Shown here: piece by piece, positions 3,165 through 53,462 of the stretch
Position numbering within the stretch: the first letter of the stretch is position 1
Layout: each line of letters opens with the position of its first letter
IMG/VR virus record: IMGVR_UViG_3300028888_000067
Location: 32,001 to 96,000 of that record
Strand: one strand, 5' to 3'
Origin: a virus
Lineage: Duplodnaviria; Caudoviricetes
DNA: 64,000 bases
Notes under the pieces: generated by a model
Seen by the model: only the letters and a program-made list of their open reading frames with translations
Database searches by the model: none
What the model was told of the DNA's origin: nothing
Program-made: the position numbers and the translations under genes

Positions 3165-3548
3165 ATGAATGATATGAAAGTATTGAAAACGCACAATTTC
3201 ATTTCAGAACGCATTAAGATCAGACCGGTGACGAATGCTGAATTTGGCAAGATTCAGCAAGACATACACAAGAATCCATTTGGTCTGACAAAGAAAGATT
3301 TGGATCGTCAAATGTCAAAAGTTCCGATGGGCATTGCTGTTCGTATGTTAGAAGAGCAGGAAATGCAGAACAATGCTGCTGATATCACTATATTTTGCTA
3401 TAATTGTTGTAGTGATAAAGATGAGGGTGGATTTAACTGGAAAAATACTGAACAAGGCACAGATTTTTGGAAAGATGTGTTAGGTTACTATAATTTTGAT
3501 GTTTTTTTTGACAGATATCCTGAATACGAAAAATACAATTTAGATTAA
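3165..3548 (+). CDS. Leader-family protein, cargo type A (leader starts at ATG 3174)
   Basis: MKVLKTHNFISERIKIRPVTNAEF; C-terminus YPEYEKYNLD shared with 12589 and 13464. Confidence 0.85.
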   Translation: MNDMKVLKTHNFISERIKIRPVTNAEFGKIQQDIHKNPFGLTKKDLDRQMSKVPMGIAVRMLEEQEMQNNAADITIFCYNCCSDKDEGGFNWKNTEQGTDFWKDVLGYYNFDVFFDRYPEYEKYNLD

Positions 3549-3549
3549 A

Positions 3550-4029
3550 ATGAAAGTGCTCGACATATACGATTTCATTTCAGAACGCATGAAATTCAAG
3601 CCAGTCACGAATGCAGAATGGGAGCAAGCACAGAAAGACTTTGCTGGAAAAACATATTGTGAAAAAATAAATAATCCAACATTTGCCGACATCAGAAAAG
3701 GGAATGCAGTTTATGTTGATAGTGCTGGAGAACGTAATGTGTATATTGTGTTTGACACCAAGACTTTGCCTTTGTTTCTTAAGTCTAATCTTTCTAGGCA
3801 TGCTTTTGACAACAATCCGGAAACAATCATGATAAGATACGACAGCACGCTGAAATGCTGTTACCGGAATGTAGAGCCATTCAAAAACAGGTTTCCCTAT
3901 AAAGAACATTTTGAGGAAGTGGAAATAATCGGGATATACCACACTAACATAAATGTCGATGACATGCAAAGTTTTGAAGACTTGAACAAAGTATGGACAG
4001 CGTTATGTGAAAAAATAAATATACAGTGA
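3550..4029 (+). CDS. Leader-family protein, cargo type C
   Basis: MKVLDIYDFISERMKFKPVTNAEW; cargo similar to 5187. Confidence 0.85.
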   Translation: MKVLDIYDFISERMKFKPVTNAEWEQAQKDFAGKTYCEKINNPTFADIRKGNAVYVDSAGERNVYIVFDTKTLPLFLKSNLSRHAFDNNPETIMIRYDSTLKCCYRNVEPFKNRFPYKEHFEEVEIIGIYHTNINVDDMQSFEDLNKVWTALCEKINIQ

Positions 4030-4034
4030 ACATT

Positions 4035-4613
4035 ATGGAAATAAAGAAAGCTAATCTGAAATTCGTGAAACCTCTGTCAAAGAGAAAAAAGACGACAGAG
4101 ATCATAATACATTGCAGCGCCACAAGAGAGGGCAAGAACTTCACCGTCGAGTCTATTCATAAGATGCATTTGCAGAACGGCTGGGCTGGAATAGGATACA
4201 ACTATTACATTGACATAAACGGTGACATCTGGGAAGGAAGACCTGAATCTTGTGTGGGTTCTCACACGACAAACCACAACTCAAACTCAGTGGGCATCTG
4301 CTATTGTGGAGGACTTGACTCTGCAGGACGGCCGAAAGACACACGCAACGCAAAGCAACTTGCAGCAATGATTTGGCTTTGTCGTGAAATGCACCGCAAA
4401 TACCCAAATGCTACTTTCCACGGACACCGTGAGTTCGCGAACAAAGCTTGCCCGTGCTTTGATGTCCAGTCTTGGATAAAGACATTCTCACTTGACATGC
4501 CAGACAATGGCATCTCGCAGCCAATGGTGACGAATCTCGCACAGACAGAAATGGCGAAGAAAATCGCAGATGCGTTTTCGAAGATATTCAAAAGAAACAA
4601 CAATTTAGTATAA
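4035..4613 (+). CDS. N-acetylmuramoyl-L-alanine amidase (Amidase_2, T7-lysozyme-like endolysin)
   Basis: IIIHCSAT, GWAGIGYNY, SVGICYCGG, GHREFANKACPCFDV Zn-binding motifs. Confidence 0.9.
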   Translation: MEIKKANLKFVKPLSKRKKTTEIIIHCSATREGKNFTVESIHKMHLQNGWAGIGYNYYIDINGDIWEGRPESCVGSHTTNHNSNSVGICYCGGLDSAGRPKDTRNAKQLAAMIWLCREMHRKYPNATFHGHREFANKACPCFDVQSWIKTFSLDMPDNGISQPMVTNLAQTEMAKKIADAFSKIFKRNNNLV

Positions 4614-4622
4614 ACGAAAAAT

Positions 4623-5177
4623 ATGACAAAGATATTAGGAATCAAAGATTTTGTGGTGAGCGAAGGCTACACGAAACTTCACAAGGTGGTCGAAGACATT
4701 CTCAATCTAACATCTATTAAAACAAGATGCTCTTGGGACGGAGAGCACTGGTATTACTATGACCGTGAGAAGAAAGGGACACTTGAGGAATTCAAGTCGC
4801 TTCCAGAAAACAAGAACAAGAATCTTGAAATCTATGTATACTATGAGTTCAAGATGAATGATGACGTTTTCAAGATAGAAGAACTCGTCACGATCCATTT
4901 CTATGACATGATGGAAAATGACTATGAAGTCGAATGGAAATACTGCCACGGCATGAAAGACTTCACAAACACCATGTATGAGTATGACTCTGATGAGAAT
5001 GATGAGCTTCTCGAGAATGTCCGTGAACTGATTGAAACTGACTTTGAAGAAGTCAAAGACACCATCGCGAATGACATAGAAGACTACACGGGAATCAGAA
5101 ATAACGAAACACTGCTGAATGAAGTGTATGGCGAAATCATCGAAGGTTTCATGGAGAACTTTGAGATTGGACAATAA
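4623..5177 (+). CDS. Acidic hypothetical protein with short leader-like N-terminus
   Basis: MTKILGIKDFVVSE; lies within the late operon. Confidence 0.7.
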   Translation: MTKILGIKDFVVSEGYTKLHKVVEDILNLTSIKTRCSWDGEHWYYYDREKKGTLEEFKSLPENKNKNLEIYVYYEFKMNDDVFKIEELVTIHFYDMMENDYEVEWKYCHGMKDFTNTMYEYDSDENDELLENVRELIETDFEEVKDTIANDIEDYTGIRNNETLLNEVYGEIIEGFMENFEIGQ

Positions 5178-5186
5178 CAAAAAACT

Positions 5187-5654
5187 ATGAAAATATTAGA
5201 TACCAGCCAATTTGTTTCTGAACGGATGAAAATCAGACCGGTAACGAATGCTGAATTTGACAAAGCTAAAGAAAATGCCAAACACACGACAATGGAAAAT
5301 ATTAGAGACTCGGAAACAATAATAAAGCCAACATATGAAGACATATGCCAAGAAGGCAATGTCGTTTTTGTATATGATGGTAATAATATCAGATCTTTTG
5401 TTGTTATGCATGACAAAGAAGATTCATCTATAAGTTTAACTGGATTTTCAGCACATCTTAACACCAGATATGGCTCTATCAGGCGTCGTGAGTATTGGAT
5501 CGCAGAACGCTTCAAAAATGATTTTCCATATTATTATAGTGCTAAAATCGTTGCAGTATATAAAGCCAACATAAATACAGAAGACATAAAAACTGATGAT
5601 GACTTAAAAAATGTTTTAAAACCATACGATGATATGATTAAAACCATACGATGA
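5187..5654 (+). CDS. Leader-family protein, cargo type C
   Basis: MKILDTSQFVSERMKIRPVTNAEF. Confidence 0.85.
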   Translation: MKILDTSQFVSERMKIRPVTNAEFDKAKENAKHTTMENIRDSETIIKPTYEDICQEGNVVFVYDGNNIRSFVVMHDKEDSSISLTGFSAHLNTRYGSIRRREYWIAERFKNDFPYYYSAKIVAVYKANINTEDIKTDDDLKNVLKPYDDMIKTIR

Positions 5655-5661
5655 TATGATT
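5616..5661. repeat. 22-bp exact tandem duplication across the stop of 5187..5654
   Basis: TTAAAACCATACGATGATATGA x2. Confidence 0.9.
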
Positions 5662-5684
5662 CAAGTTAAATACTAAATAAATTA

Positions 5685-5712
5685 AAAAAGCCACTCAACT
5701 GAGTGGCTTTTT
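5685..5712. terminator. Bidirectional intrinsic terminator
   Basis: AAAAAGCCACTC-AACT-GAGTGGCTTTTT between convergent genes. Confidence 0.85.
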
Positions 5713-5773
5713 AGTTTATGCAGAAGTTCATTAGATGACTTCTAGAACACTTTCATTATTTAGACATATAATT

Positions 5774-7765
5774 TTATATCTTGAACGCCAAACCGTCTTT
5801 CTCCTTGTTCAATGAAACTGAAATCTCTTTGTTCTGTGATTCTTCTTCATTGATGATGATTTCAGTGAGTTCATCAACGAGATCTTGCTGGATGTTTCTG
5901 ATAAGTGAACGAGCACCCATTTTCTCTTTTTCAGATTTCTCGACAAGCCATTGCTTCACGCCTCTGTTGAGTTTCAGTCTGTATCCGAGTTCTTTGATTG
6001 ATGAGTGGACTTCTGCCATCTCGTTGTCGAAAATTTTGCTCATGTTGTCGACTGTCAAGTCATTGAAATAGCAGATGCTGTCGATTCTGTTCAGGAATTC
6101 TGGCGAGAACAGTTTCTTCATAGATTTCTCGATGATTCCCTTCCTGTTGTCGCTGTTGCGTTTTTCTGATTCTTCTGCGGTTGATGAGAATCCGATGAGG
6201 CTGCCGGCATTTGCTGCTTCTTTGACGCCGATGTTGCTGGTGAGAATGATGATCGTGTTTGTCGCAGAAATGTGCGTGCCGTTCGCGTCAGTGATTCTGC
6301 CTTCATCCATCAACTGCAAGATTGTGTTGTAGATGGCTGGATGCGCTTTTTCGATTTCATCAAACAGCACTACAGAATAAGGGTTGTTCTTTATTGCGTT
6401 GCAGAGAACGCCGCCTTCGCCGTAGCCCACATATCCCGGAGGCGCGCCAATCAGTTTGTTCACTGAGATCTCATCAGTGTATTCACTCATGTCAAGACGT
6501 ATAAGTGACTCCTCAGAGCCAAACATATATTCGGCAAGTTTCTTTGCGAGGAACGTCTTGCCAACACCAGTAGAACCGATGAAGATGAAATTGCCGATTG
6601 TGTGGTTTTTCTTTCTCAAGCCCAGACGGTTTCTCTTCACTGTCTTGCAGACTTTAGTGACAGTGTCGTCTTGACCTATCACCTTGCCCGTCAGCGCGGG
6701 TATCATGTTCTTCAGTTTTGAAGTGTCTGTCTCGGTGAGTTTAGCGACAGGGACGCCAGCAATGTCTGATATGACAGTGTAGATGTCATCATCGTTCAAA
6801 GCGACTTCGTCGGCATTTATATTGCTTGGTGTGTCTTCAATGTAACTTTTCAGATTTTCGATTTCAACATTCTTGTCAAGAAGTTTAAGAAGGTCTCCGC
6901 CATTCTTAGCATCATTGATTGCAGCATCAAGCTCGTTCTGCAGTTCAGTTATCTTGTGTATCTTTTTTCTTGTAGACTCATTGGGATTGTGTATCTGGTT
7001 CGTGTGTCTCACTACTGCGTTCTCTAAAACAGAAAGCGCTTTCTTCGGCATGCAGAATCCGTTCTTGACATATTTGTCGCACAAGACCACAAGTTTGTCT
7101 ACCATTTCCGGGCTCACTGTCGTGTGATAGACATTAGTCAACTCATTTGACTTCAGTCTCACGATAGTCTTCACATCATCGATGATTGGCTCTTTTATCT
7201 TGACTTCAGTGAAATGCCGTATCAGATTGTATTTTGACTCGAGATGTTTTTTCTCATTAGTGCCGCAGCAGCAGATGATCTTGATGTTTGACTTGATTGC
7301 ATGCTCGAGATGCAGAGCAGTCATCACATTGATGGAATTGTCTGCGACGAACTCATTCAAGTTGTCGATGAACAGTATTGCTTTGCGGCCCTCATCTGCC
7401 ATAGCTGTGATTGACGTGAACATGTCATTTATGCGTTCCTCATATTCAGCAATGCTTTTGATGCAGTATCCCAAAGCAAGCTGGCTCATTTCGAAGATTT
7501 CTGCGTTGTAGAAACTTTTCGGGCAGTTGTATGTGTTTATCAGATGCTGAACGTGCTTCACTAAAGCAGTCTTGCCAGTTCCTCTTCCTCCAGTTATGAG
7601 AACACTGTGGTTGTTCGTGGACAATGCATCAAATACTCTTTCCGCATACTTGTCCATCATGAGCGCTTTTTCCGCTTTCAACGGAACACAATATTCTACA
7701 TTGAGACTTTCTTTCTTGTTCCAGTCGTTCTTGTACACATTGACTGGTGTTTTTTCTGGTAACAT
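5774..7765 (-). CDS. ClpA/ClpC-like AAA+ ATPase (two AAA modules)
   Basis: GGRGTGKT; GSTGVGKT, RLDMSEY, LIGAPPGYVGY, LFDEIEKAH, FSPEFLNRID, GARSL; LIGF loop. Confidence 0.92.
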   Translation of the reverse strand: MLPEKTPVNVYKNDWNKKESLNVEYCVPLKAEKALMMDKYAERVFDALSTNNHSVLITGGRGTGKTALVKHVQHLINTYNCPKSFYNAEIFEMSQLALGYCIKSIAEYEERINDMFTSITAMADEGRKAILFIDNLNEFVADNSINVMTALHLEHAIKSNIKIICCCGTNEKKHLESKYNLIRHFTEVKIKEPIIDDVKTIVRLKSNELTNVYHTTVSPEMVDKLVVLCDKYVKNGFCMPKKALSVLENAVVRHTNQIHNPNESTRKKIHKITELQNELDAAINDAKNGGDLLKLLDKNVEIENLKSYIEDTPSNINADEVALNDDDIYTVISDIAGVPVAKLTETDTSKLKNMIPALTGKVIGQDDTVTKVCKTVKRNRLGLRKKNHTIGNFIFIGSTGVGKTFLAKKLAEYMFGSEESLIRLDMSEYTDEISVNKLIGAPPGYVGYGEGGVLCNAIKNNPYSVVLFDEIEKAHPAIYNTILQLMDEGRITDANGTHISATNTIIILTSNIGVKEAANAGSLIGFSSTAEESEKRNSDNRKGIIEKSMKKLFSPEFLNRIDSICYFNDLTVDNMSKIFDNEMAEVHSSIKELGYRLKLNRGVKQWLVEKSEKEKMGARSLIRNIQQDLVDELTEIIINEEESQNKEISVSLNKEKDGLAFKI

Positions 7766-7795
7766 ATAATATTCAAGTTTAAGTTTTATTACAGT

Positions 7796-12107: not shown

Positions 12108-12587
12108 TCATAGTTGTTTCAAGTATTCTGTTAAATCAGGCATGTTGTCAAGATACCACTTGACAAACGATTGTCTGCTCTCACAAATGTTTTTCAAATC
12201 AGGTATAAAGTATTTGTAAACTGCTTTTATATTAAACTTTGGATGCATGTAATGTTCTGGAAAGTGATGGCCATATGAGTCACTTGGCACATACATTGGT
12301 TCGTTGCTGCTGTTTAATCTAACAAAACACCATTTGCATTTTATATTTTCTTTTAAAAATATTTTTGTCGCATATTCCAGAGCAATGACGATTCTTATCT
12401 TGTTGTCATCCATTTGCAACAACCAGCCCAACTGAAGATCATCAACACTTTTGATTGTTGATAAATCAAGTTTAACTGGCATAGTAATAGGCATCATGTC
12501 TTCTTTTGCTTTTTCCCATTCTGCATTTGTGACCGGTCTGATCTTCATGCGTTCAGCAACAAAGTCATATGTGTTTAATACTTTCAT
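12108..12587 (-). CDS. Leader-family protein, cargo type B
   Basis: MKVLNTYDFVAERMKIRPVTNAEW; PVKLDLSTIKSVDDLQLGWLL shared with 12965. Confidence 0.85.
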   Translation of the reverse strand: MKVLNTYDFVAERMKIRPVTNAEWEKAKEDMMPITMPVKLDLSTIKSVDDLQLGWLLQMDDNKIRIVIALEYATKIFLKENIKCKWCFVRLNSSNEPMYVPSDSYGHHFPEHYMHPKFNIKAVYKYFIPDLKNICESRQSFVKWYLDNMPDLTEYLKQL

Positions 12588-12588: not shown

Positions 12589-12963
12589 TCAATCTAAATT
12601 GTATTTTTCATATTCTGGATACTTTTCAAAAAACACGTCAAATTTTCTTTTAGTTATCACTTTATGCCAGAAAGCATATTCATCTTTTGTACGAATCCAT
12701 TCGAATCCACCGTTTGCGGCTGTTGAGTCTGCACGTTTCTGGAACACTGTCACATCGGCTTTGTTTCCCTGTTTCTCTTGTTCCTCTAACATTTTGACGA
12801 CAACACCCATTGGAAAATTTTTTATGGACATTGTCAAATCTTTGTCAGTCAAATCAAATGGATTCTTGTGCAGTTCTTTCATCGCTTGCTCCAATTCTAC
12901 ATTCGTCACTGGCTTGAATTTCATGCGTTCAGAAACGAAATTGTCTGTGTTCATCACTTTCAT
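12589..12963 (-). CDS. Leader-family protein, cargo type A
   Basis: MKVMNTDNFVSERMKFKPVTNVEL; ends YPEYEKYNLD. Confidence 0.85.
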   Translation of the reverse strand: MKVMNTDNFVSERMKFKPVTNVELEQAMKELHKNPFDLTDKDLTMSIKNFPMGVVVKMLEEQEKQGNKADVTVFQKRADSTAANGGFEWIRTKDEYAFWHKVITKRKFDVFFEKYPEYEKYNLD

Positions 12964-12964: not shown

Positions 12965-13462
12965 TTAATTCAAATATTTTGCTATATACGATGTCTCATC
13001 ATATATGTTGCTGATATACCAGTCAGCAAATGACTTTTCATTTTTACATATGCTTTCCAGATTTCCTATTGTATACTTATATACTGCTGTTATGTCAAAT
13101 ATAGTATTATAAGAAAATCTTTTATAATATTTTGGAAAAGTAGACGCATATAAATCGCTTGACAGAAATCCAGCAATTCCATTCTCTGCCACTTTCACAA
13201 AACACCATTTGCGGTCTATATGGTCATTAAGCTCCACTACATTTTTAGCATATTCCTCTGTGAGAACGACTCTTATGTAGTCATCAGCAGTGCGCAACAA
13301 CCAGCCCAACTGAAGATCATCAACACTTTTGATTGTTGATAAATCAAGTTTCACCGGTGTTATAGATTTTATGTCTTCTTTTACTTTATCCCATTCTGCA
13401 TTCGTGACAGGCCTGATCTTCATGCGTTCAGAAACAAAGTCATATGTGTTTAATACTTTCAT
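12965..13462 (-). CDS. Leader-family protein, cargo type B
   Basis: MKVLNTYDFVSERMKIRPVTNAEW. Confidence 0.85.
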   Translation of the reverse strand: MKVLNTYDFVSERMKIRPVTNAEWDKVKEDIKSITPVKLDLSTIKSVDDLQLGWLLRTADDYIRVVLTEEYAKNVVELNDHIDRKWCFVKVAENGIAGFLSSDLYASTFPKYYKRFSYNTIFDITAVYKYTIGNLESICKNEKSFADWYISNIYDETSYIAKYLN

Positions 13463-13463: not shown

Positions 13464-13832
13464 TCAATCTAAATTGTATCTTTCATATTCTGGATATTTT
13501 TTGAAAAATATGTCAAATTTGTGATAGTTTATGACATCAGGCCAGAATGTACGTTTTTCATCTGTACGTGACCAGTCAAATAAGCCAGTAATACAGGTCT
13601 GCATTATTTTGAGTAATTTAAGATTTGTTTCACTTCTTTGCTGCTTTGCTATTTCCATCATCCTCACGACAACTCCCATTGGAAAATTTTCGATGTCTCC
13701 AACTAAATCACGTTTAGTCAATCCAAACGGATTCTTGTTCAGTTCTTTCATCGCTTGCTCCCATTCCGCATTCGTCACTGGTCTGATCTTCATGCGTTCA
13801 GAAACGAAATCATATATGTTCAGTATTTTCAT
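13464..13832 (-). CDS. Leader-family protein, cargo type A
   Basis: MKILNIYDFVSERMKIRPVTNAEW; ends YPEYERYNLD. Confidence 0.85.
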   Translation of the reverse strand: MKILNIYDFVSERMKIRPVTNAEWEQAMKELNKNPFGLTKRDLVGDIENFPMGVVVRMMEIAKQQRSETNLKLLKIMQTCITGLFDWSRTDEKRTFWPDVINYHKFDIFFKKYPEYERYNLD

Positions 13833-13842: not shown

Positions 13843-13858
13843 TATAAATATATTTATA
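13843..13858. promoter_or_regulatory. Adjacent divergent late promoters
   Basis: TATAAATA (13843-13850) directly followed by TATTTATA (13851-13858). Confidence 0.7.
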
Positions 13859-15373: not shown

Positions 15374-16921
15374 ATGAGCCTTAACCTACAGGAACTTGTT
15401 ATATTTAGAGAGGAAGCCGGGAGAGAACTCACTCATCATGAAGTAGACAACAACTTCAAGAAAGTGGCTAATCCTTGGGAAGCAACAAGAGAATATTTTT
15501 CTCAAGATGTCGTGTTTTGGCCAAACGGCAATGGACTTGATGTCTATATGTATGTGAACAATGTGTCTACAATAGCACCGGCAACAGTTGGAGTGAATCC
15601 GCCAAGCAATCTGTTCAATGGGACAGAAGGATGGGTGCAGATTGGTACTGGTGGAGGCGGAGGTGGTGAAGGCCCGCAAGGCCCTCCAGGAGAGCAAGGT
15701 GCTCAAGGCACTCAAGGTGCTCAGGGAACACAAGGCACTCAAGGAACTCAAGGCTATCAAGGACATCAGGGCTATCAGGGCTACCAGGGATATCAGGGCT
15801 ACCAGGGTTATCAAGGTGCTCAGGGAACTCAAGGCCCTAAAGGTGTTGGTGAGCAGGGAGCTGTTGGAGCACCTGGTGCTCCCGGTTACCAAGGATACCA
15901 GGGATACCAGGGCGCTAAAGGCGAAGCTGAAGTGTATGTCGAATCTACGCAAGAGACTTTCAGGATATACCAAGGCGCTCAAGGCGTTGAAGGTGCTCAA
16001 GGCTACCAAGGCTATCAAGGTTACCAGGGCTACCAGGGTTACCAGGGATATCAAGGCTATCAGGGATCACAAGGCATACAAGGCCCTCCTGGTGAGGTGA
16101 CAGTCATAGATCCAACGGGAATGCAAGAATACTATGTAATCCAGGGAACTCAGGGACTACAAGGACTTCAAGGAATTCCTGGTTTTGGAATGCAAGGATA
16201 CCAGGGACTTGCTGGTTCGATGCAGGGAACGACTGGCGCACAAGGCTATCAGGGATTCCAGGGATGGGACGGCTACGGGATGCAGGGAATCCAGGGACCT
16301 GCTGGTTCGATGCAGGGAACAACTGGCGCACAGGGAATCCAAGGAATACAGGGCGGTCTTGGAATCCAGGGCTCAAGAGGATATGATGGCGAAATTGGCT
16401 TGCAGGGAATCACAGGTGGCCAAGGTGATATTGGCATGCAAGGAAGCCAAGGCATCCAGGGATACACAGGTGTCGGCAAGTCGACATATGATGTGTGGTA
16501 TGAATATATCCAGTCGACTACCGGCATCCAGGGAACAGTGCAGATGTTCTTAAGTTCTATGCAGGGAATCCAGGGTCCAAAAGGTGCAGATGGTGGTGGC
16601 TCAGGCGGCGGAGGTTGTGGCTGTGGCTGCGGTTGTGGCTGCAACAATGAATGCAAAGTGAGAGAAACAATAACTCAGTTCATTCCTGCAAATGAAGAGA
16701 CAAGTCTTTCTTTTGAGGACATGTTCTACGAGATATGGAACGACGGCATTGTCGTGTATGTAGATTCTGTATTGCCAGCAAAACTTTCCATAGAAGACAA
16801 CACTCTTACTGTTGAACCTGAAGAAGAGTCAAGATGGTTGAGCGTCTATTATGAGTATTATGACCAGACAATGGGCAACTACATACTTATCGCGCCAAAG
16901 ATTTTCGTACAATCAACATAA
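15374..16921 (+). CDS. Collagen-like fibre protein (G-X-Q triplets, GCGCGCGCGC)
   Basis: R..GRELT..EVDNNF fibre N-terminal motif; long GYQ/GAQ/GTQ/GIQ runs. Confidence 0.85.
   Translation: MSLNLQELVIFREEAGRELTHHEVDNNFKKVANPWEATREYFSQDVVFWPNGNGLDVYMYVNNVSTIAPATVGVNPPSNLFNGTEGWVQIGTGGGGGGEGPQGPPGEQGAQGTQGAQGTQGTQGTQGYQGHQGYQGYQGYQGYQGYQGAQGTQGPKGVGEQGAVGAPGAPGYQGYQGYQGAKGEAEVYVESTQETFRIYQGAQGVEGAQGYQGYQGYQGYQGYQGYQGYQGSQGIQGPPGEVTVIDPTGMQEYYVIQGTQGLQGLQGIPGFGMQGYQGLAGSMQGTTGAQGYQGFQGWDGYGMQGIQGPAGSMQGTTGAQGIQGIQGGLGIQGSRGYDGEIGLQGITGGQGDIGMQGSQGIQGYTGVGKSTYDVWYEYIQSTTGIQGTVQMFLSSMQGIQGPKGADGGGSGGGGCGCGCGCGCNNECKVRETITQFIPANEETSLSFEDMFYEIWNDGIVVYVDSVLPAKLSIEDNTLTVEPEEESRWLSVYYEYYDQTMGNYILIAPKIFVQST
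15672..16590 (+). repeat. Imperfect 9-bp collagen-coding repeats, with an internal duplication of AGSMQGTTGAQG
   Basis: CAAGGCTAT/CAGGGATAC-type units; GCTGGTTCGATGCAGGGAAC at 16211 and 16301. Confidence 0.85.
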
Positions 16922-16928
16922 ATGAATC

Positions 16929-17879
16929 ATGCCTGAGAAAAAAATCATAAACCCATCAGCAAACACAAGCACGCCAGTGTCATCATCGTGTGATGTCACT
17001 TACCATGTAGTCGATGACAGTCTTGACATACAGTTAAGTTTCACTTTTGTGCCGTTTGATTTCCGCAAGTACAAATGGACTTTGTTTGATGACGTCGCAA
17101 GAGACAGGCGACGCTCTTTCATGAACAACCAGAAACTTAACTGGATAAAATGCACATTATACAATTACATTCCATTCGCGTTATGCAGAGCAGAGCAAGA
17201 AGGACTGTACACTAACTTCAATGATGCTTCATTTTCAGAAATAGACTGGAACTTGGACGCATTTGCCCACAACATTGACTTGACTTCATATGCTGAAAAC
17301 CACTTGGACACAGCTGTGTTTGAAACCGGATTGAGAGAGAAAGCTGAAACTATACTTGAGCCAAGTGATTCTTGGTTTGACATAAACCAGATGGGAATGA
17401 CTTACAATTTCTCTTATGGCCTGAATGCTAACAAGTTTTTCAGCATAGTCACGCCGCCTTCATATGAGAGCTTTGACCAGCTTCTACTTGACGTGCATGA
17501 TGGAGACCCGTCAGCTATAGCAGCAACAAAAATCTGGAATGACAATGATAGTGTGTGCAAAGCATATTTGCATATGTCTCTTCCACTTGCTGATGATGGC
17601 GAGCAGCGCACTTACGCAGTCCTGTTTGCTAATCCAGCAACAAGGCAGATAACGACAAAGTTCATACCCGTCACACGGACTGAACCTGAGACGCATACGA
17701 AACTTGTGTATGTGCAGAATTCTATGTCTATAAACGGTGATGAGGGAAAGCTTGCTGTCAGCATATCACAGAGAGACGACACATCACTTGACATGCATAT
17801 AGGCAAAAATACCGGCTCGAGCAACTGGACAGCGATACATCCGAGAATAACTTTCAAGGTCAAAAAAATCGTGGAATAA
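16929..17879 (+). CDS. Hypothetical protein (late/structural context)
   Basis: 316-aa ORF directly after the collagen gene. Confidence 0.7.
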   Translation: MPEKKIINPSANTSTPVSSSCDVTYHVVDDSLDIQLSFTFVPFDFRKYKWTLFDDVARDRRRSFMNNQKLNWIKCTLYNYIPFALCRAEQEGLYTNFNDASFSEIDWNLDAFAHNIDLTSYAENHLDTAVFETGLREKAETILEPSDSWFDINQMGMTYNFSYGLNANKFFSIVTPPSYESFDQLLLDVHDGDPSAIAATKIWNDNDSVCKAYLHMSLPLADDGEQRTYAVLFANPATRQITTKFIPVTRTEPETHTKLVYVQNSMSINGDEGKLAVSISQRDDTSLDMHIGKNTGSSNWTAIHPRITFKVKKIVE

Positions 17880-23951: not shown

Positions 23952-23959
23952 TATAAATA
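23952..23959 (+). promoter_or_regulatory. Late promoter TATAAATA
   Basis: Between the terminator and ATG 23979. Confidence 0.7.
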
Positions 23960-23978: not shown

Positions 23979-24464
23979 ATGAATATATTGCAGCTTAATG
24001 ATTTTGTTTCTGAACGTATGAAAGTGAAGCCAGTCACCAATGCAGAATGGGAAAAAGCTCAGAAAGAATATAAAAATCTTAAAAATTTGCCATTCACTAA
24101 AGATTTGCCATTCACTAAAGACAGTATCACCTGTGGAACGATAGTCATGTTTAGTGATGGAACTTTAGGCGTGTATATGGATGGCGCCATTTCGCATACA
24201 ATATCAGTCTTTTTTGGTAAAAACAGACACGGCAAAGCGTTTTATTTGACTATCCCTAATGCGACTCGTATCGACTCATCCACATTGCTTGACTCAGATA
24301 ACTTTACGAATGACCTGAAACTTCATGTAAACAAAGAACTCTATATTATTAGAATATACAACAACGCTATCACACTAGATGAGATGAAATCATTGGCTAA
24401 TGATGATTTCTATTCTGTTATTGAAAAAATGGCTAAAGATAGAACATATATAGAAAGACAATAA
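23979..24464 (+). CDS. Leader-family protein, cargo type D
   Basis: MNILQLNDFVSERMKVKPVTNAEW; FTKD.ITCGTIVMF shared with 24467. Confidence 0.85.
   Translation: MNILQLNDFVSERMKVKPVTNAEWEKAQKEYKNLKNLPFTKDLPFTKDSITCGTIVMFSDGTLGVYMDGAISHTISVFFGKNRHGKAFYLTIPNATRIDSSTLLDSDNFTNDLKLHVNKELYIIRIYNNAITLDEMKSLANDDFYSVIEKMAKDRTYIERQ
24085..24120. repeat. 18-bp exact in-frame tandem duplication
   Basis: ATTTGCCATTCACTAAAG x2. Confidence 0.9.
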
Positions 24465-24466: not shown

Positions 24467-24937
24467 ATGAAAATATTAAAGACATATGATTTCATTTCTG
24501 AACGAATGAAGTTCAAGCCAGTGACTAATACAGAATGGGAGCAAGCAAAAAAAGATATAGAAAATCTTAAAAATTTGTCATTCACTAAAGACTGCATCAC
24601 TTGTGGGACTATAGTTATGTTCAGAGATAAAACTTTTGGCGTGTATGTAGATGGTGACATTGCAAAAGAAATACGAGAGCATTTCAGAATATTTGAGGCT
24701 AGAACTAGTTTTTTCTTATGCTCTACGTCTAAAGATGATATTAACTTTACATATTGTAGCTTTGATAATATTAATGATAAGTTGTTTCACCATCTGCTTG
24801 CTGATATAGACATTGTCAGGATTTATGAAAACCCACTTACAATAGATGAAATAAAATCATTTGAAACTAATTTCAAGCAGGCGTACACTAATCTTGTGGA
24901 TATGGCTAAATCCAGAAAATATATAGAAAGAAAATAA
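24467..24937 (+). CDS. Leader-family protein, cargo type D
   Basis: MKILKTYDFISERMKFKPVTNTEW. Confidence 0.85.
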   Translation: MKILKTYDFISERMKFKPVTNTEWEQAKKDIENLKNLSFTKDCITCGTIVMFRDKTFGVYVDGDIAKEIREHFRIFEARTSFFLCSTSKDDINFTYCSFDNINDKLFHHLLADIDIVRIYENPLTIDEIKSFETNFKQAYTNLVDMAKSRKYIERK

Positions 24938-27295: not shown

Positions 27296-28090
27296 TTATA
27301 ATGTGCCTGCAGCTGAATCTTTGAATTTTGGATGTTTGTCTGTATCATATCTCATAGGAGTTCCATGAAAAATGTCAAAAGCAAATTCAACATTTCTGAC
27401 ATCCCAGCCAGACAAATCTTGGCTGAAACATTTTGCGTCTTTGAACATGTTCCGCATATCAATGACGCTTGAAACAGTCCATCTAGATATGTCACAGTTG
27501 AATGATCCAGCACCATCAAACATAGAATTCATGTCAATGACTTTCGAGACGTGCCAATCTGACAAGATTCCTTTGAATGACACTGCTTTGCAGAACATGC
27601 CATGCATGTCTTCTACATTGTCTACCATCCATCCAGAAATGTTTCCATTGAATGATTCTGCATAAGAAAACATCCAACTCATGTCTTTCACATTTGAGAC
27701 ATCCCAATCTATCAAATCGCAGTTGAACACTTTGTTCTTGTAGAACATGCCTTCCATATTGGTCACGTTTGAGACATCCCATTTAGATATGTCGCCACAG
27801 AACTTAGAAAAATCGTCAAAATAGCTGCGGCTAAAACCTTTTTCATTCACATCTGAAAACAAGTAAGACATGTCAGTCATGTTTCCGGTATATATGTCAT
27901 TCAAGTCACATGCATTTCCCTCTTTTTCGATTTTTTTGTGTATTATGTCTCTAAGTTCTTTTTCTGTGTTTGGACTGTAATTGTATATGCAATGCCCGTG
28001 TTTTTTTGCCAGCTTGTCTAGTTCAGTGTTAGTCACTGACTTGACTTTCATCCGTTCAGAAATGAACCGTTCAGAATCCAATATTTTCAT
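27296..28090 (-). CDS. Leader-family protein carrying BspA/DUF285-type ~25-aa repeats
   Basis: MKILDSERFISERMKVKSVTNTEL followed by F..DIS.WDVSNV..M..MF repeats. Confidence 0.88.
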   Translation of the reverse strand: MKILDSERFISERMKVKSVTNTELDKLAKKHGHCIYNYSPNTEKELRDIIHKKIEKEGNACDLNDIYTGNMTDMSYLFSDVNEKGFSRSYFDDFSKFCGDISKWDVSNVTNMEGMFYKNKVFNCDLIDWDVSNVKDMSWMFSYAESFNGNISGWMVDNVEDMHGMFCKAVSFKGILSDWHVSKVIDMNSMFDGAGSFNCDISRWTVSSVIDMRNMFKDAKCFSQDLSGWDVRNVEFAFDIFHGTPMRYDTDKHPKFKDSAAGTL

Positions 28091-28105: not shown

Positions 28106-28141
28106 TATTTATAATTTTTGATGAAATTTTTGTTATATTAA
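28106..28141. promoter_or_regulatory. Divergent late (-) and 14-mer (+) promoters
   Basis: TATTTATA 28106-28113; TTTTGTTATATTAA 28128-28141. Confidence 0.7.
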
Positions 28142-28156: not shown

Positions 28157-28882
28157 ATGCATATATTAGATGACTATATCGTTTTGAAAAGAGAAAATCT
28201 TGAAACAGTGTCCACAGTCAAAAGCAAGGACTGGCTTTTCAAGAAAAACTTGTTCAGCTTCATCATTGCTGGCTGCATTTTAGTCACTGCAGTGTCTTTA
28301 AGTCTTCTCACTGTGTATGAGATAAAGCATTTTAGACATATACAGTTCCTTGAGAAGATGCATGAGTATGAAGTGAATGTCCATCTGGCAGCAAATGACT
28401 CATTGCAGTCAGAATTAGACGAGACTGTCAGAGCAAACACACTTGCTGACAAATGCTATGAGTCAGTAGTAGAGAAATGCCCGCCAATCACTAATGACCG
28501 TCTGTGGGAGTTCATTTTAGAATGTGATCCCTGGTATCCCGACATCATAATGACACAAGCAGTCCAAGAGAGTGGCTGCGGTAAAAGCGCAGTTGGCAAG
28601 AGATGCTGCAACTTGTTCGGGATGAAGAAGCCGTCTTCTCGTTCTTGGCGTTGCGACTCAAACAGGCACAACAAGAAAGAGCAGTATGCTGAATACGAGA
28701 ACTGGAAGCTGAGCGTCATCGACAGGATACTGTGGGAGAAATGGATGTTCCGCAACCACAAGGGCAAGCCTGAATTAGACAAGTACCTTGAAGCTATCAG
28801 CAAAGTCTACAACACTGAGACCCCGGGATACGCAGAAACGATATACAAGAATGCAAGCAAGTACCGTAAAATGATTGAGTGA
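28157..28882 (+). CDS. Membrane-anchored glucosaminidase (GH73-like, lysozyme fold)
   Basis: N-terminal TM; QAVQESG, NLFGMK, YAEY.NW..SV.D. Confidence 0.75.
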   Translation: MHILDDYIVLKRENLETVSTVKSKDWLFKKNLFSFIIAGCILVTAVSLSLLTVYEIKHFRHIQFLEKMHEYEVNVHLAANDSLQSELDETVRANTLADKCYESVVEKCPPITNDRLWEFILECDPWYPDIIMTQAVQESGCGKSAVGKRCCNLFGMKKPSSRSWRCDSNRHNKKEQYAEYENWKLSVIDRILWEKWMFRNHKGKPELDKYLEAISKVYNTETPGYAETIYKNASKYRKMIE

Positions 28883-29604
28883 TGTTTTCAGACAACCCAA
28901 ATGCAGTAGGGATATACACGGACCGTTTAGACGAAATAAGATCGAGTTACAACGAGTTCATGACAAAGTATCCAGATTTCAGGTTCCACCATGAGACAAT
29001 AGTATACCGTGATTTCTTTGAGTCATTGCCGGAGTATCTGTGTGCAGGGACTATGTACAACATATGCACTCTATACACAAAGATGAACTTCGACTATGTC
29101 AACGGGAAGTACATATACAAGACAAGCGACAGCCTTATGGATCTCATGATGTCATTGATGAAGACAGGCATTCTGTCTGAAACGCAATGGCACACGCTTC
29201 TCAATCAGGTCGAGTGCTTTGACTTCAATGATGAATATGAGATGTACACAGAAAGACTGCTGAAAATACTGAACAGATATTATTATGAAGCACATGTGAA
29301 ACTGTCAGACATAATGTTCTACATAAGAGACGAGTTCACAGAAAATGGCGTGTTTTCAGAAAAGTTTTTATGCTGTGGTGATTTTGATTTCATGTCATTG
29401 TACAGGTGCAGGACTGACACAACCCCAGTGATAGCTTCCTGCTGCAAAGCAGTGTATGACGAGACAAGCAGTCTTGTCTCAAGATGGCCGAAAGCGGCGC
29501 GTACTCTGCATTTCAGGACACCAGGATTCTTGAATGAGTTTGTTTTAGAAAAAGAAGAAGAGCAAAAGAACAAAGAACGGTCAAAACGCAAGAGACATGT
29601 TTAG
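28882..29604 (+). CDS. Hypothetical protein, MFSDN family
   Basis: Starts MFSDN at 28882; weak similarity to the next ORF (..QW..L...V..FD.N). Confidence 0.7.
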   Translation: MFSDNPNAVGIYTDRLDEIRSSYNEFMTKYPDFRFHHETIVYRDFFESLPEYLCAGTMYNICTLYTKMNFDYVNGKYIYKTSDSLMDLMMSLMKTGILSETQWHTLLNQVECFDFNDEYEMYTERLLKILNRYYYEAHVKLSDIMFYIRDEFTENGVFSEKFLCCGDFDFMSLYRCRTDTTPVIASCCKAVYDETSSLVSRWPKAARTLHFRTPGFLNEFVLEKEEEQKNKERSKRKRHV

Positions 29605-30262
29605 CGACAACAAATCACTTATCGGGCACAACTGGCTTTATGACTATCTGTCTGAAAGCATGAAGAATTTCAATGAGTCAGCTTATTACGATAGAGCTCA
29701 CCCATATCTGGATATTCACGAAGTGCGAGGACTTTTGATGAAGAAAGGTTTCGATTCAGAAGAAACGCAGACTGAACTCAAAAGACTTCTCAACTATGAC
29801 CATAGTTCCTATTATATGGAAGATGATGAAGCAGTATTAGTGCATCAGTATCTTATGTCACAGAATGCATTCACAGCAAACCAATGGGACAAACTTTGCC
29901 CGTTTGTGAAAGTGTTTGACTACAATGCTGACTTTAGATCATTGCTGAACTACATTGTAATCAATGCTGAGTCATATATCATCAAATATGCTGATGATGT
30001 GCTGCATGAACTCAATCGTGGCATACTTGCTGTATTGAAAATATCTCGTGATGACTTTGAAGTGATGTTTGAAATGTTTGAAAAAAGTTTCAGCCATAAA
30101 GATGAAACATTTCTCAAATTGATACATTTCCTTGGAGACTGCTTGCTTGACTTTTATGAGAAATGGCCTGATGATTTTGGCACTGCTCAGAAAAGACTTT
30201 CAAAATACATAGCGTCAATAGCGTCAGTAGACAATCCTTATTGGACTATTTTTCCTTATTAG
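29597..30262 (+). CDS. Hypothetical protein, MFSDN family
   Basis: Starts MFSDN. Confidence 0.7.
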   Translation: MFSDNKSLIGHNWLYDYLSESMKNFNESAYYDRAHPYLDIHEVRGLLMKKGFDSEETQTELKRLLNYDHSSYYMEDDEAVLVHQYLMSQNAFTANQWDKLCPFVKVFDYNADFRSLLNYIVINAESYIIKYADDVLHELNRGILAVLKISRDDFEVMFEMFEKSFSHKDETFLKLIHFLGDCLLDFYEKWPDDFGTAQKRLSKYIASIASVDNPYWTIFPY

Positions 30263-49229: not shown

Positions 49230-49255
49230 AAATAACCAATCAACAAGCCAAACCT

Positions 49256-49855: not shown

Positions 49856-49864
49856 ACAAAAGCC

Positions 49865-50050
49865 ATGTTTAGCGACAATGAACATCTAAAGAAATTTGTC
49901 AAGCCAAGTGAAGAAGAAAAAAGAAAGGCAATAGAAGAAAAAAATAAGGAAAGACTAGAACAATGGGCACGCAAGATGATGAATAACAGTTTCTATGGCG
50001 CTTATGTGCCAGACTATTCTTGCATTGTCAATATTACACCAAAACTTTGA
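49865..50050 (+). CDS. Small protein, MFSDN family
   Basis: MFSDNEHLKKFV. Confidence 0.6.
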   Translation: MFSDNEHLKKFVKPSEEEKRKAIEEKNKERLEQWARKMMNNSFYGAYVPDYSCIVNITPKL

Positions 50051-50052
50051 AG

Positions 50053-50337
50053 ATGTTTTCCGACAACGAAAATCTCAAAGACATTGTGCATGTCTCGTTT
50101 GAGAAGTTCAGACAAGACGCGCTTAAACGTGCAGAACAGCGTAATGAACACCAAAGAAAGGGACAGTTCATATACATAGACTGCATGTCTCGTTATTATG
50201 AACAACTTGTCGAACTTGAGACATGTACACCAGAATTGTTTTCGAAAGTCGATTGTTTCTACAATGACAACAACATTGACGCATTTCTGGAAGTCATATA
50301 TGAAAATATAAATAAAACAACAAAGTATGACTTATGA
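50053..50337 (+). CDS. Small protein, MFSDN family (start corrected)
   Basis: ATG 50053, MFSDNENLKDIV. Confidence 0.6.
   Translation: MFSDNENLKDIVHVSFEKFRQDALKRAEQRNEHQRKGQFIYIDCMSRYYEQLVELETCTPELFSKVDCFYNDNNIDAFLEVIYENINKTTKYDL
50307..50314 (+). promoter_or_regulatory. Late promoter TATAAATA
   Basis: Upstream of the 50334-53462 gene run. Confidence 0.65.
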
Positions 50338-50873
50338 AATGGGACTATAATCCACGCACAGGAAGAATGGAGCCTCAACGGCAGACTGGCATTGAAGTCA
50401 CTGCACGCCAAGGCGGTGTGATGGTTGAGGATAATGACAAACATGTGCAGTTTCTTATCAACTATGGCACAAGTGCTATTTCGCATTGTGTTGGCTGCAC
50501 TGGCAGAGACATTCATCTGTTCAACGACAATGACGCGAGAAAGATTGCTGAAAGAGTTAGGTGGATTGCGAGAGGCAAAGGGATAGATGAAATGTATTTT
50601 GACTGGAAAACTTATTCAATAAATTATAGAAATATGAGAACTAACGAAAACCACGTTTATAGAATAGATGAATTCAACAATATGAACAAGCAAGCGCTTG
50701 AAGATCTTTATCTTGGCAAGACGATAAGAATCATCAGCTTGAAAGATGAAGATTCAAGATATGCAGGCAGAGAAGGAAAAGTCGAACACATTGACGACCT
50801 TGGGCAGCTTCACGGCACTTGGGGCGGGCTTGCTGTCATCCCTGATGTTGATTCATTTGAAGTTATAGAATAA
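50334..50873 (+). CDS. Protein with C-terminal DUF4314-like domain
   Basis: G..G.V.HIDD.GQLH..W..LA.IP.VD.F.VI. Confidence 0.65.
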   Translation: MKWDYNPRTGRMEPQRQTGIEVTARQGGVMVEDNDKHVQFLINYGTSAISHCVGCTGRDIHLFNDNDARKIAERVRWIARGKGIDEMYFDWKTYSINYRNMRTNENHVYRIDEFNNMNKQALEDLYLGKTIRIISLKDEDSRYAGREGKVEHIDDLGQLHGTWGGLAVIPDVDSFEVIE

Positions 50874-50882
50874 TATACGAAT

Positions 50883-51293
50883 ATGAAAATACTTAAGCTA
50901 GACGAACAAGACACATTTTACCAAGTTGATGCAAGCGGGTTTGAAGGTGAAACTATCACATTTGACTTGAATGACATCCGTACACTTAAAAACGAAAATA
51001 TAGAAATCTTGATTGAAGTTGACTGTAACATAATCGTCAATTATGTGTGGGATTCACACGGCAAGTGCGTGCCTTTTCCATACAATGGCAAGACGACAAT
51101 GAAGCAGAACAATGTTCACGCAAAGATAACAAAAATCGAAAGAACATATGCTTATGATGACGGAGATGTGTCTGATGAAGAAAGCTGGGATCTTGAATTG
51201 AATGGCGAAAAACATCCAGGAGATGTGTACCGTTATTCATACAACGAAAAAAACAACACACTAAGAGTCAAACTTTGTGTTGGAGCTGGATAA
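50883..51293 (+). CDS. Hypothetical protein with short leader-like start
   Basis: MKILKLDE. Confidence 0.65.
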   Translation: MKILKLDEQDTFYQVDASGFEGETITFDLNDIRTLKNENIEILIEVDCNIIVNYVWDSHGKCVPFPYNGKTTMKQNNVHAKITKIERTYAYDDGDVSDEESWDLELNGEKHPGDVYRYSYNEKNNTLRVKLCVGAG

Positions 51294-51302
51294 AAATAAA
51301 AC

Positions 51303-52460
51303 ATGAATATGAAAATACTTAACTTAAACGATTTTATCAATGAAGCACATGCTGCTACAGATCCTTATGTTGATTTGCCGGAAAGAGTAAAAAAATATCA
51401 CAAAAGTTTTTGGGACACAAAAGAATTCGCAAAAGAAGCTAAGGAAAAATACAAAGAATATGCGAAGACTGCTCAGCAGATAAATGGAGACAATCTTGAG
51501 ATTCTTGTTGCTAGACTTAAAGAAGCAGTGACTAATGCAAACGGCAACAAAGCTTTCGTTTTGATGGCAGATGAATGCAAATTTGACAGGTATTATTTTG
51601 AAAGAGAAAGAGAACATGATTTCTTTAGCGAAGTAGAACTGGCACTTTCTTACATCAGAGCTGCATTAGAGCTTGATGATTTCTCAATGGGTGAGTTCAC
51701 GCACACAAGAAAAGACAGCAAGGGCAAAAGCATAAACCTTGGACGTTGGAACGGCAACCAGTCATACACTGCTAATTTATATTACTGGATTTCTAAGATA
51801 GCTGCTGCGTACAATGTAGACATGCCGAAATTTGACAAAGACATCACTTTGCTGAGCACATCGTCAGCTGATGAAAGGTTCGATGCATGGTACAACGACA
51901 GAGTAGGTTTCCGGAAAATATCAGATCGTGCATATGACACTGCTCGTGAGAGATCACAGCAAGAATATGAGAGAGATTCAAAGAAAATAAGGAAAGCTCG
52001 TGAAGCATTCAGAAAGACAGAACTCTACAAAGACTTGAATGAAATCTTAGACATTGTCGAGAATGATTTGAAAGCAGCAGACAATGATTATATCAGATGG
52101 GCTGACAAGATGGCAGAAAAAGCAAGAAAAGATGCATATGAGAAACAGATTCAAGATGCTATAGAAAAAGTGTCAGACTATGTCAAGTCAGAAATAGAAA
52201 AAGAGCTTGATGACGACAATTTCTGCTACGGGCAGACATCTCTGTACCAGTTAGCTGCTATCGCATATGTTGAAGACGGTGACATGCCAGCAATCGTGGT
52301 GAAGTCGTCAAAAACGGGTTCTTGGATGTCTGGAATGCGTCACAGTGCTACATTTGAAGTGATAGGCAAAAACGGCAAGTCTTTCGGCGAAGTCACAATG
52401 GGAGACTATGGCATCACCGATCATGGCCGCACTGTTGATGGATTCGGCGCTTGGGACTAA
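51303..52460 (+). CDS. Hypothetical protein with capsid-targeting-like start
   Basis: MKILNLNDFINE. Confidence 0.7.
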   Translation: MNMKILNLNDFINEAHAATDPYVDLPERVKKYHKSFWDTKEFAKEAKEKYKEYAKTAQQINGDNLEILVARLKEAVTNANGNKAFVLMADECKFDRYYFEREREHDFFSEVELALSYIRAALELDDFSMGEFTHTRKDSKGKSINLGRWNGNQSYTANLYYWISKIAAAYNVDMPKFDKDITLLSTSSADERFDAWYNDRVGFRKISDRAYDTARERSQQEYERDSKKIRKAREAFRKTELYKDLNEILDIVENDLKAADNDYIRWADKMAEKARKDAYEKQIQDAIEKVSDYVKSEIEKELDDDNFCYGQTSLYQLAAIAYVEDGDMPAIVVKSSKTGSWMSGMRHSATFEVIGKNGKSFGEVTMGDYGITDHGRTVDGFGAWD

Positions 52461-52475
52461 ACATAATGGCTTGTC

Positions 52476-52958
52476 ATGAAAATATTGAATGCACATAGTT
52501 TCATTGCTGAACGCATGAAGTTCAGACCAGTCACGAATGTTGAATGGGATAAAATCAAAAGAGAGATAGAACATCAAACATTGCCTGATTTGCCGCTTTC
52601 ATATGACAATATTCTTGTGTCCGGCAACATATTAACTATAGAAACTATCATGGATATTCATTCATTGAATTTCAGCAATGACTATATTGTTATAGAACAA
52701 AAAGACTGGTGGTACAGATTGCACAATAGCGTATTTCGTGTATTAGTAAGATACTGCGAATATAGTCCAACAAACATGTCATACTGGACTGGTTATGAAC
52801 AAGCGTTTAAAGGTTCTCAGTTTCCAACAACGAATGAAAACAAATACAGAATCACAAGAATAAGAGGCACTTTGTCTAAACAAGAGCTTCATGACATAAA
52901 AAATGTTGATGATCTTAAACGGATATATGACAAGTACAATTTGACTTATGATAAATAA
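52476..52958 (+). CDS. Leader-family protein, cargo type E
   Basis: MKILNAHSFIAERMKFRPVTNVEW. Confidence 0.85.
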   Translation: MKILNAHSFIAERMKFRPVTNVEWDKIKREIEHQTLPDLPLSYDNILVSGNILTIETIMDIHSLNFSNDYIVIEQKDWWYRLHNSVFRVLVRYCEYSPTNMSYWTGYEQAFKGSQFPTTNENKYRITRIRGTLSKQELHDIKNVDDLKRIYDKYNLTYDK

Positions 52959-52970
52959 TATATGTGAATC

Positions 52971-53462
52971 ATGAAAATATTTGACATAGATAGTTTCATT
53001 GCTGAACGCATGAAGTTCAGACCAGTCACAAATGTAGAATGGGACAAAATCAGAAAAGAGACTCTTGTAGAGCTGCCTGTCAAATATGAAAACATATTGA
53101 CACTTGGAAATGTGCTAACTATAAAGAAGACATATAAACATAAAGAACGCTCAAATGAAAATAGTGAAACTGATTATATTGTCACATTAAAAGAATATGC
53201 ACCTGTTGAAATAGCAAGAGATGCCAAACAAGTGTTGGTGTCATATAGACTAAACGGAAACACTAATCAGATTACATATTGGGTTGATTTTTTTGATAAC
53301 TTCAAACCAGCTTTTCCAAAACTTGATATTTTAGGTGTATGCGAGTTTGAGGTGACTAACATAAGAGGAACTTTGCCCGATTACATCTTGCGTAAGATGA
53401 AAGACATAAATTATATGAAACGCGTGTATGATGAATATCATTTGGCTTGTGACTGTTCATAA
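52971..53462 (+). CDS. Leader-family protein, cargo type E
   Basis: MKIFDIDSFIAERMKFRPVTNVEW; LP..Y.NIL..GN.LTI and T.IRGTL shared with 52476. Confidence 0.85.
   Translation: MKIFDIDSFIAERMKFRPVTNVEWDKIRKETLVELPVKYENILTLGNVLTIKKTYKHKERSNENSETDYIVTLKEYAPVEIARDAKQVLVSYRLNGNTNQITYWVDFFDNFKPAFPKLDILGVCEFEVTNIRGTLPDYILRKMKDINYMKRVYDEYHLACDCS

Follow-up and report, generated by a model that had tools for sequence, protein, structure and literature searches.

The internal proteins of bacteriophage T4 carry short N-terminal propeptides, of 10-19 residues, which direct them to the core of the prohead and are then cut off by the protease gp21 at [IL]-x-E (PMC8442874, PMC9026906, PMC5694885). In the T4 record, IPII and IPIII start with MKTYQEFIAE followed by A, whereas the propeptide of IPI has 19 residues and ends with I-T-E. 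In T-even phages, the internal proteins are described as diverse proteins that counter host defences and have in common only this capsid-targeting sequence (CTS) (PMC3012670, PMC9026906). The giant phages SPN3US and phiKZ contain families of head ejection or inner-body paralogues with up to 20 members, which are processed by a diverged gp21 homologue that cuts after Glu. The diverged paralogues gp53 and gp54 have an identical 15-residue N-terminus with protease motifs, likened by the authors to the CTS of T4 (PMC5694885). The present analysis concerns a 24-residue N-terminal leader that recurs on otherwise dissimilar small proteins encoded in a 64,000-nucleotide stretch of viral DNA (hereafter the window), corresponding to positions 32001-96000 of the IMG/VR record IMGVR_UViG_3300028888_000067. 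This record is a 128,637-bp viral contig with a CheckV completeness of about 42%.

A preliminary description of the window, made from its letters alone, had reported 12 leader-bearing open reading frames (ORFs) in five loci, headed by one consensus with minor variants. All of them were recovered at the starts given there, which are 3174, 3550, 5187, 23979, 24467, 52476 and 52971 on the plus strand and 12587, 12963, 13462, 13832 and 28090 on the minus strand. The consensus M-K-x-L-x4-F-[IV]-[SA]-E-R-M-K-[IFV]-[RK]-P-V-T-N-x-E-[WLF] heads the 12 proteins with the minor variants described, and residues M1, F9, E12, R13, K15, V19, T20, N21 and E23 are invariant in their alignment. The leader genes of the window are the following (lengths in amino acids, aa):

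3174-3548, plus strand: leader gene, 124 aa, type-A helical cargo.
3550-4029, plus strand: leader gene, 159 aa, cargo of the class with a small beta-barrel plus helix.
5187-5654, plus strand: leader gene, 155 aa, beta-barrel cargo class; in the folded model, leader residues 1-19 have a predicted local distance difference test score (pLDDT) below 50 and the cargo 80-92.
12108-12587, minus strand: leader gene, 159 aa, class-B cargo.
12589-12963, minus strand: leader gene, 124 aa, type-A cargo.
12965-13462, minus strand: leader gene, 165 aa, class-B cargo.
13464-13832, minus strand: leader gene, 122 aa, type-A cargo; in the folded model, leader residues 1-16 have a pLDDT below 50.
23979-24464, plus strand: leader gene, 161 aa, cargo class of its own.
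24467-24937, plus strand: leader gene, 156 aa, same cargo class as the gene at 23979.
27296-28090, minus strand: leader gene, 264 aa, cargo of DUF285 repeats; position 18 of this variant leader is S.
52476-52958, plus strand: leader gene, 160 aa, leader end F-I-A-E like that of the T4 tag; the cargo is a distant relative of the 3550/5187 class.
52971-53462, plus strand: leader gene, 163 aa, leader end F-I-A-E.

The leader family is larger than the preliminary description reported. The scan beyond the window that it had proposed gave 24 leader copies over the whole contig (six-frame scan) and 20 in a sister contig, G001 (121.6 kb, 38% complete). A degenerate DNA pattern that covers residues 1-12 alone gave 21 matches here and 13 in the sister contig, with no match for the reversed control pattern and none in LR756500.1 (462 kb), the closest complete relative by portal (49% identity), which has no leader copy at all. 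The recurrence of the leader is therefore not due to chance. A leader-only profile run against 1.84 billion cluster representatives (threshold E <= 0.001) matched 158 proteins, all of metagenomic origin and almost all of 90-320 residues (median 156). The match lies at residues 1-30 in nearly all of the 150 matches listed, and Glu is residue 12 in 151 of 159 leader proteins. Two profile matches with five repeats of the second-half motif (P0071 and P0134) were discarded as artefacts, being ORFs read through unrelated repeat arrays. The leader gave no match by tblastn in about 50,000 GenBank phage records. Pfam, PHROGs and NCBIfam hold no family for it, nor for most of its cargos. A full-text literature search with the leader strings gave no relevant paper, and the Jug-phage preprint does not mention such a leader family.

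The proteins that follow the leader are of many kinds, as had been claimed for the window, where the cargos form six BLAST classes, two of them distantly related (hhalign, 96% probability). Once the leader is removed, the 24 contig proteins fall into 11 BLAST classes and the 177 proteins from all sources into 33. Profile comparison joins only some of the cargo classes of about 135 residues, with 96% probability for one pair and 25-33% for others. The cargo at 27296-28090, which had been called BspA-like, corresponds to Pfam DUF285 (PF03382; E = 3.4e-54, 182 bits, cut-off 25) and has three further members in the contig. In a Pfam census of 150 leader proteins, eight have DUF285, four to five have beta-solenoid repeats and about 91% have no Pfam domain; no recognisable replication or metabolic enzyme was found among them. 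Pfam and NCBIfam scans recognised no toxin or immunity domain in the cargos. Cargo lengths range from 75 to 390 residues, modelled as folded domains.

The leader is a portable and strictly N-terminal module that is separate from the cargo, as supported by several arrangements of the type-A cargo. In four relatives this cargo occurs twice in tandem, yet the leader is present once, at the N-terminus. The same cargo is also found without any leader, with the first half intact and the second degenerate, and under an unrelated longer N-terminus that retains L-I-Y-E, then R, and the intact second half. In the 211-residue ORF P0069 of the contig (L001 778-1413, minus strand), the second half is internal and preceded by L-V-S-E, after a basic 62-residue N-terminal region with a K-K-Q-Q-R-F-F motif; this ORF could be a fusion or could start at an internal Met. 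The preliminary description had held that the leader should not fold as an integral part of its cargo. In AlphaFold2 models of two unrelated cargo classes (type-A and beta-barrel), the leader is not modelled as part of either fold: residues 1-16 and 1-19, respectively, have a pLDDT below 50, whereas the cargo domains reach 74-92. A short helix at residues 21-31 is present in both models and is followed in the second by a low-confidence linker. The tandem cargo under one leader, the occurrence of the same cargo without it and the lack of packing in the models together mark the leader as a separate module. Two ORFs of the window resemble the first half of the leader only:

4623-5177, plus strand: ORF within leader locus 1, N-terminus only first-half-like (end D-F-V-V-S-E), without the second half.
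51303-52460, plus strand: 385-aa ORF directly upstream of leader locus 5, first half only (end D-F-I-N-E).

These arrangements bear on a simple explanation, namely that the leader was simply passed down as the N-terminal part of a single multigene family in expansion, for instance as a short strand plus helix that serves oligomerisation or stability, with neither targeting nor processing. The diversity of the cargos would then come from fast divergence and recombination downstream. The tandem arrays and the A-B-A-B duplications indicate active local duplication, several of the cargo classes of about 135 residues are distantly related, and the modelled helix at residues 21-31 would suit such an element. 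However, no single fold can have diverged into DUF285 repeats, beta-solenoids, a helical domain and a beta-barrel domain, the leader stands only once on duplicated cargos and is missing from other copies of the same cargo, and the models show no contact between leader and cargo. We regard this explanation as unlikely, also in view of the strong selection on the leader itself that is described below.

The preliminary description had noted that the third codon positions of the leader vary, and had concluded that selection acts on the peptide rather than on a DNA site. The variation is indeed concentrated at third positions. The invariant residues F9, R13, K15, P18, V19 and T20 use two to four codons each: F9 is encoded by TTT 12 times and TTC 11 times, R13 by four CGN codons, P18 by three codons, V19 by three and T20 by four. 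Among codon pairs for identical residues, 39% differ, compared with about 60% expected at saturation. Synonymous sites have therefore moved about two-thirds of the way toward saturation, and yet nine leader residues are invariant. Such synonymous variation at invariant residues means that selection acts on the peptide, which bears out the earlier conclusion and is at odds with a merely inherited N-terminus. Another reading is that what is conserved is not a peptide but a feature of the nucleic acid where the genes begin, at their 5' end, be it a translational operator, a structured RNA or a site of recombination. Some adjoining leaders are near-identical in DNA, with a lowest synonymous difference of 8%, so that local gene conversion does occur; the multiple codons per invariant residue, the proportion of differing codon pairs and the excess of change at third positions nevertheless make a nucleic-acid element highly improbable.

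Judging from its gene content, the contig is part of the genome of a huge, uncultivated phage whose head and replication genes are of T4 type. By PHROG it encodes a portal, a gp6-like baseplate wedge, tail-fibre-like proteins, a gp32-like single-stranded DNA-binding protein, a UvsX-like recombinase, NrdD and a DNA ligase. The nearest relatives of this portal are those of uncultured phages of 462-735 kb, of Sphingomonas phage PAU and of the Prevotella Lak phages. The largest of these phages and the Lak phages belong to the Mahaphage clade, whose hosts are Bacteroidetes (PMC7162821), and the contig appears to have its closest portal relatives among phages of this clade. A Shine-Dalgarno-like motif precedes only 3 of the 157 contig genes and the upstream regions are 47% A; since both features fit a Bacteroidota host, such a host is probable.

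The head genes of the lineage are best seen in the sister contig, which encodes a gp23-type capsid protein (family cut-off passed) and a 665-residue protein (L020 1-1998; G001 93353-95350) whose N-terminal part is a Peptidase_S77 domain, the family of T4 gp21 (40 bits, cut-off 27). The rest of this protein is a scaffold-like region with 13 near-identical 14-residue repeats that contain Y-[LI]-A-E, so that the pattern aromatic-[LI]-A-E recurs 13 times at a period of 14 residues. Leader genes lie on both sides of the protease-scaffold gene, and another lies two genes downstream of the capsid gene. In the contig studied here, three leader genes lie directly upstream of the portal. A co-fold of the protease-scaffold protein with the first 60 residues of a leader protein, both of the sister contig, gave a score of 0.00; it was run without controls and speaks neither for nor against an interaction.

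The window holds 14 copies of a T-A-T-A-A-A-T-A box, where 1.7 would be expected. The box lies 19-40 nucleotides upstream of the portal, of tail-fibre-like genes and of other large genes, and is absent upstream of uvsX and of the gp32-like gene. Four of the five leader loci of the window have the box directly before their first gene, and the fifth is reached through the head of a same-strand gene run:

3146-3153, plus strand: box, 21-28 nucleotides upstream of the start at 3174.
13851-13858, minus strand: box, 19-26 nucleotides upstream of the four-gene array that starts at 13832.
23952-23959, plus strand: box upstream of the start at 23979.
28106-28113, minus strand: box upstream of the start at 28090.
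50307-50314, plus strand: box at the head of the same-strand gene run from 50334 to 53462, the end of which is leader locus 5.

Counting exact matches only, the box stands before 7 of 11 leader locus heads and before 21 of 136 other genes (Fisher p = 0.0009). From this co-occurrence with structural genes, the leader genes may be expressed late.

The best reading of these observations, which we hold with moderate confidence, is that the leader serves as a capsid-targeting tag, N-terminal, in two parts and specific to this lineage, for the many small proteins of a polymorphic family in a huge phage with a T4-type head. The preliminary description had seen a T4-type tag in residues 1-12. The layout is indeed that of the IPII and IPIII tag, with M-K, a variable stretch and then aromatic-[IV]-[SA]-E, two members of the window ending in F-I-A-E; the likeness is one of layout, as a stretch of 10-12 residues is too short to assess homology statistically. 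For the course of events we infer targeting, cleavage, timing and injection as follows. The leader genes would be transcribed together with the structural genes, and the tag would guide each protein to the core of scaffold in the prohead as this assembles. Then, the gp21-type prohead protease would cut at the site aromatic-[IV]-[SA]-E, past Glu12, so that residues 1-12 would be removed as T4 removes its tag. The mature protein, with the invariant new N-terminus R-M-K-x-[RK]-P-V-T-N-x-E, would stay in the head with the DNA and be delivered into the next host cell. The retained half of the leader may be a second docking or ejection element.

Two motif findings favour this reading, one being the recurrence of aromatic-[LI]-A-E in the scaffold region of G001. 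The other is that the motif [FYW][LIV][ASN]E, which was chosen post hoc, is rare in the cargos, with two occurrences in 24,104 residues where shuffled sequences predict 6.8; the remaining proteins have 18 in 34,470 residues (Fisher p = 0.005). For aromatic-[LIV]-x-E close to the N-termini of genes without a leader, the excess is only marginal, at five against about two expected (p = 0.055).

Several observations weigh against capsid targeting. The contig, at its estimated completeness, holds no prohead protease or capsid gene. LR756500.1 has the same module of portal, protease-scaffold (L018 13724-15622) and capsid genes together with its lack of leaders, so this head type does not need the tag; in its scaffold repeat the period is the same but the motif is degenerate and Glu is often absent, so that the repeat may be structural and not a set of cleavage sites. 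No homologue of T4 gp55 was found in this contig, in G001 or in LR756500.1, a negative that is uninformative; as the box is shared with structural genes and no gp55 was detected, the name late promoter reflects co-occurrence only. In the invariant [IV]-[SA]-E, P3 is Val in about 60% of leaders and Ile in about 40%, compared with Leu or Ile in the T4 rule, and the broad motif [LI]-x-E is not depleted in the cargos (observed-to-expected ratio 1.09). The mature leader proteins have mixed isoelectric points of 5.0-9.3, unlike the basic internal proteins of T4. The best-conserved residues, 13-23, lie past the proposed cut, a pattern left unexplained if the leader is simply a propeptide to be discarded. 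Finally, twenty or more tagged genes per about 125 kb is, to our knowledge, far above any known phage.

Part of this evidence would be accounted for if the leader were an N-terminal recognition peptide for a partner that acts in the infected cell and not in the virion, the cargos being intracellular effectors made after infection. It might offer a grip to the ClpB/ClpA/ClpV-like AAA+ unfoldase of the phage itself, act as a degron or timer, or dock the protein to a host complex. Any N-terminal recognition tag would agree equally well with the strict N-terminal position, the modularity and the selection at peptide level, the peak of conservation at residues 13-23 resembles a binding epitope more than a disposable propeptide, LR756500.1 has the same head module and no tag, and the gene of a double-ring Clp-type ATPase (window 5774-7765) adjoins leader locus 1. 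On the other hand, a peptide of this kind leaves several features unexplained: the resemblance in layout between residues 1-12 and the T4 tag, with a set distance from Met1 to Glu; the [LI]-x-E followed by R that is kept when the first half is replaced; the clustering beside the portal, protease-scaffold and capsid genes; and the box in common with structural genes. We consider such a recognition peptide possible, though doubtful. Capsid targeting accordingly ranks first among the readings, a recognition tag outside the virion second and a merely inherited N-terminal element third.

Within capsid targeting, a more elaborate version may be considered, in which the leader is a two-stage address. 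A CTS-like propeptide would be cut after Glu12, and the new N-terminus would tether the protein to the DNA or to the portal for ordered ejection, or its N-terminal Arg would set the lifetime of the injected protein. More than 30 unrelated classes would thereby be loaded into, and delivered from, the capsid of one huge phage of Bacteroidota, an injected repertoire much larger than that of any other phage known. This version is unlikely as a whole.

The functions of the cargos were sought by structure as well as by sequence. With Foldseek against the PDB and VIA-align wide, the beta-class cargo gave nothing above generic small beta-barrel similarity (best Z 5.5) and the type-A cargo gave no match; the ESM Atlas returned generic helical matches only, and a search with the beta-class cargo alone matched only itself. 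Since sequence, fold and Atlas searches assign no function to any cargo, the view of the cargos as an anti-defence arsenal is speculation. Other kinds of N-terminal leader were considered and rejected. The sequence has no hydrophobic stretch as in a signal peptide, no G-F-x-x-x-E context as in a prepilin leader and, in place of the short core peptide of ribosomally synthesised and post-translationally modified peptides, is followed by folded cargos of 75-390 residues.

If capsid targeting is correct, the huge gut-type phages of this lineage load their heads with dozens of different small proteins by means of one portable tag, and the T4 principle of a CTS on polymorphic internal proteins is extended by an order of magnitude. 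The 33 classes would be candidate injected proteins for host takeover or counter-defence, almost all without a known domain, and the leader would be a candidate packaging tag to load foreign proteins into Bacteroidota phages. The conserved segment left on the mature protein would then point to a step after loading (retention, ejection or turnover) with no described counterpart in T4.

The surroundings of the leader genes have features of their own. The ATPase gene beside leader locus 1 (5774-7765, minus strand) encodes a ClpB/ClpA/ClpV-like double-AAA+ protein that lacks the N-domain usual in such proteins; its NCBIfam match (E = 1e-117) stays below the equivalog cut-offs. Two genes code for peptidoglycan hydrolases, an Amidase_2 protein within leader locus 1 (4035-4613, plus strand) and a protein with a Glucosaminidase domain (28157-28882, plus strand) whose gene is transcribed divergently from the DUF285 leader gene. 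The slot directly upstream of uvsX varies between related phages (window 51303-53462 versus L022 9449-10363): here it holds the 385-aa gene and two leader genes, and in a contig of the ENA a DUF4314 gene and one type-A gene with a variant leader. Two further N-terminal motifs recur. M-F-S-D-[ND] is found on otherwise dissimilar small proteins (window 28882-29604, 29597-30262, 49865-50050 and 50053-50337; L022 8311-9093) and is conserved in the syntenic ENA contig. M-K-[RK]-Q-I-R-x-G-x-F-E-T-N-S-S heads the proteins at 60027-60731 and 60760-61101 of the window and at 16695-17399 and 17638-17997 of L022.

Upstream of the window lies an array of about 30 transfer RNA (tRNA) genes (L001 17793-19882, L002 641-7298 and 13633-14055; contig about 17.8-25.3 kb and 31.6-32.1 kb). 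Among them are putative suppressors, with the anticodons TTA and CTA, and one call with a four-base anticodon. The ORFs of the contig end in TAA (99), TGA (40) and TAG (18), and the large ORFs are intact under table 11 despite the putative suppressors. Recoding of the stop codons of the leader genes was considered and rejected: these genes end in TAA or TGA, and read-through would add at most 37 residues.

The arrangement can be compared with several known systems. In polymorphic toxin systems, a constant N-terminal trafficking region is combined, as here, with exchangeable C-terminal domains in tandem arrays. The constant part of the leader proteins, however, is only 24 residues long, it is encoded in a phage genome and not in a secretion-system locus, and no toxin or immunity domain was recognised in any cargo. 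Encapsulin cargo-loading peptides are short conserved terminal peptides that send diverse cargo inside an HK97-fold shell. In contrast to what is proposed for the leader, they are usually C-terminal and uncleaved, bind the shell protein directly and serve a compartment that is free of DNA.

The head-protein families of SPN3US and phiKZ differ in that their propeptides mostly exceed 100 residues, with the motif [SAG]-x-E, and their mature domains are common to the family, whereas the cargos of the leader are unrelated and its propeptide would have 12 residues with I or V at P3. No leader protein matches these families in the Pfam census of 150 members, in which only DUF285 and beta-solenoid domains appear.

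The closest likeness is to T4. As with the CTS, which takes up about 10-19 residues, the leader stands at the extreme N-terminus and is common to otherwise unrelated small proteins at dispersed loci; it starts with M-K and ends its first half with aromatic-aliphatic-small-Glu. The lineage also encodes a gp20-type portal (here) and a gp23-type capsid protein and gp21-type protease (in the sister contig). In the preliminary description the leader was a plug-in address label; it is indeed a portable module on unrelated cargos, but the principle is not new, being known from the T-even internal proteins that share a CTS (PMC3012670, PMC9026906). In contrast to T4, the tag has 12 residues and not 10, conservation is stronger still in the 12-residue segment after it, for which the preliminary description was right to see no T4 counterpart, and there are 20-24 members per fragment of about 125 kb compared with three in T4. 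What is new is the bipartite 24-residue leader with an invariant half that would be retained, the size of the family and its occurrence in an uncultivated lineage of huge phages.

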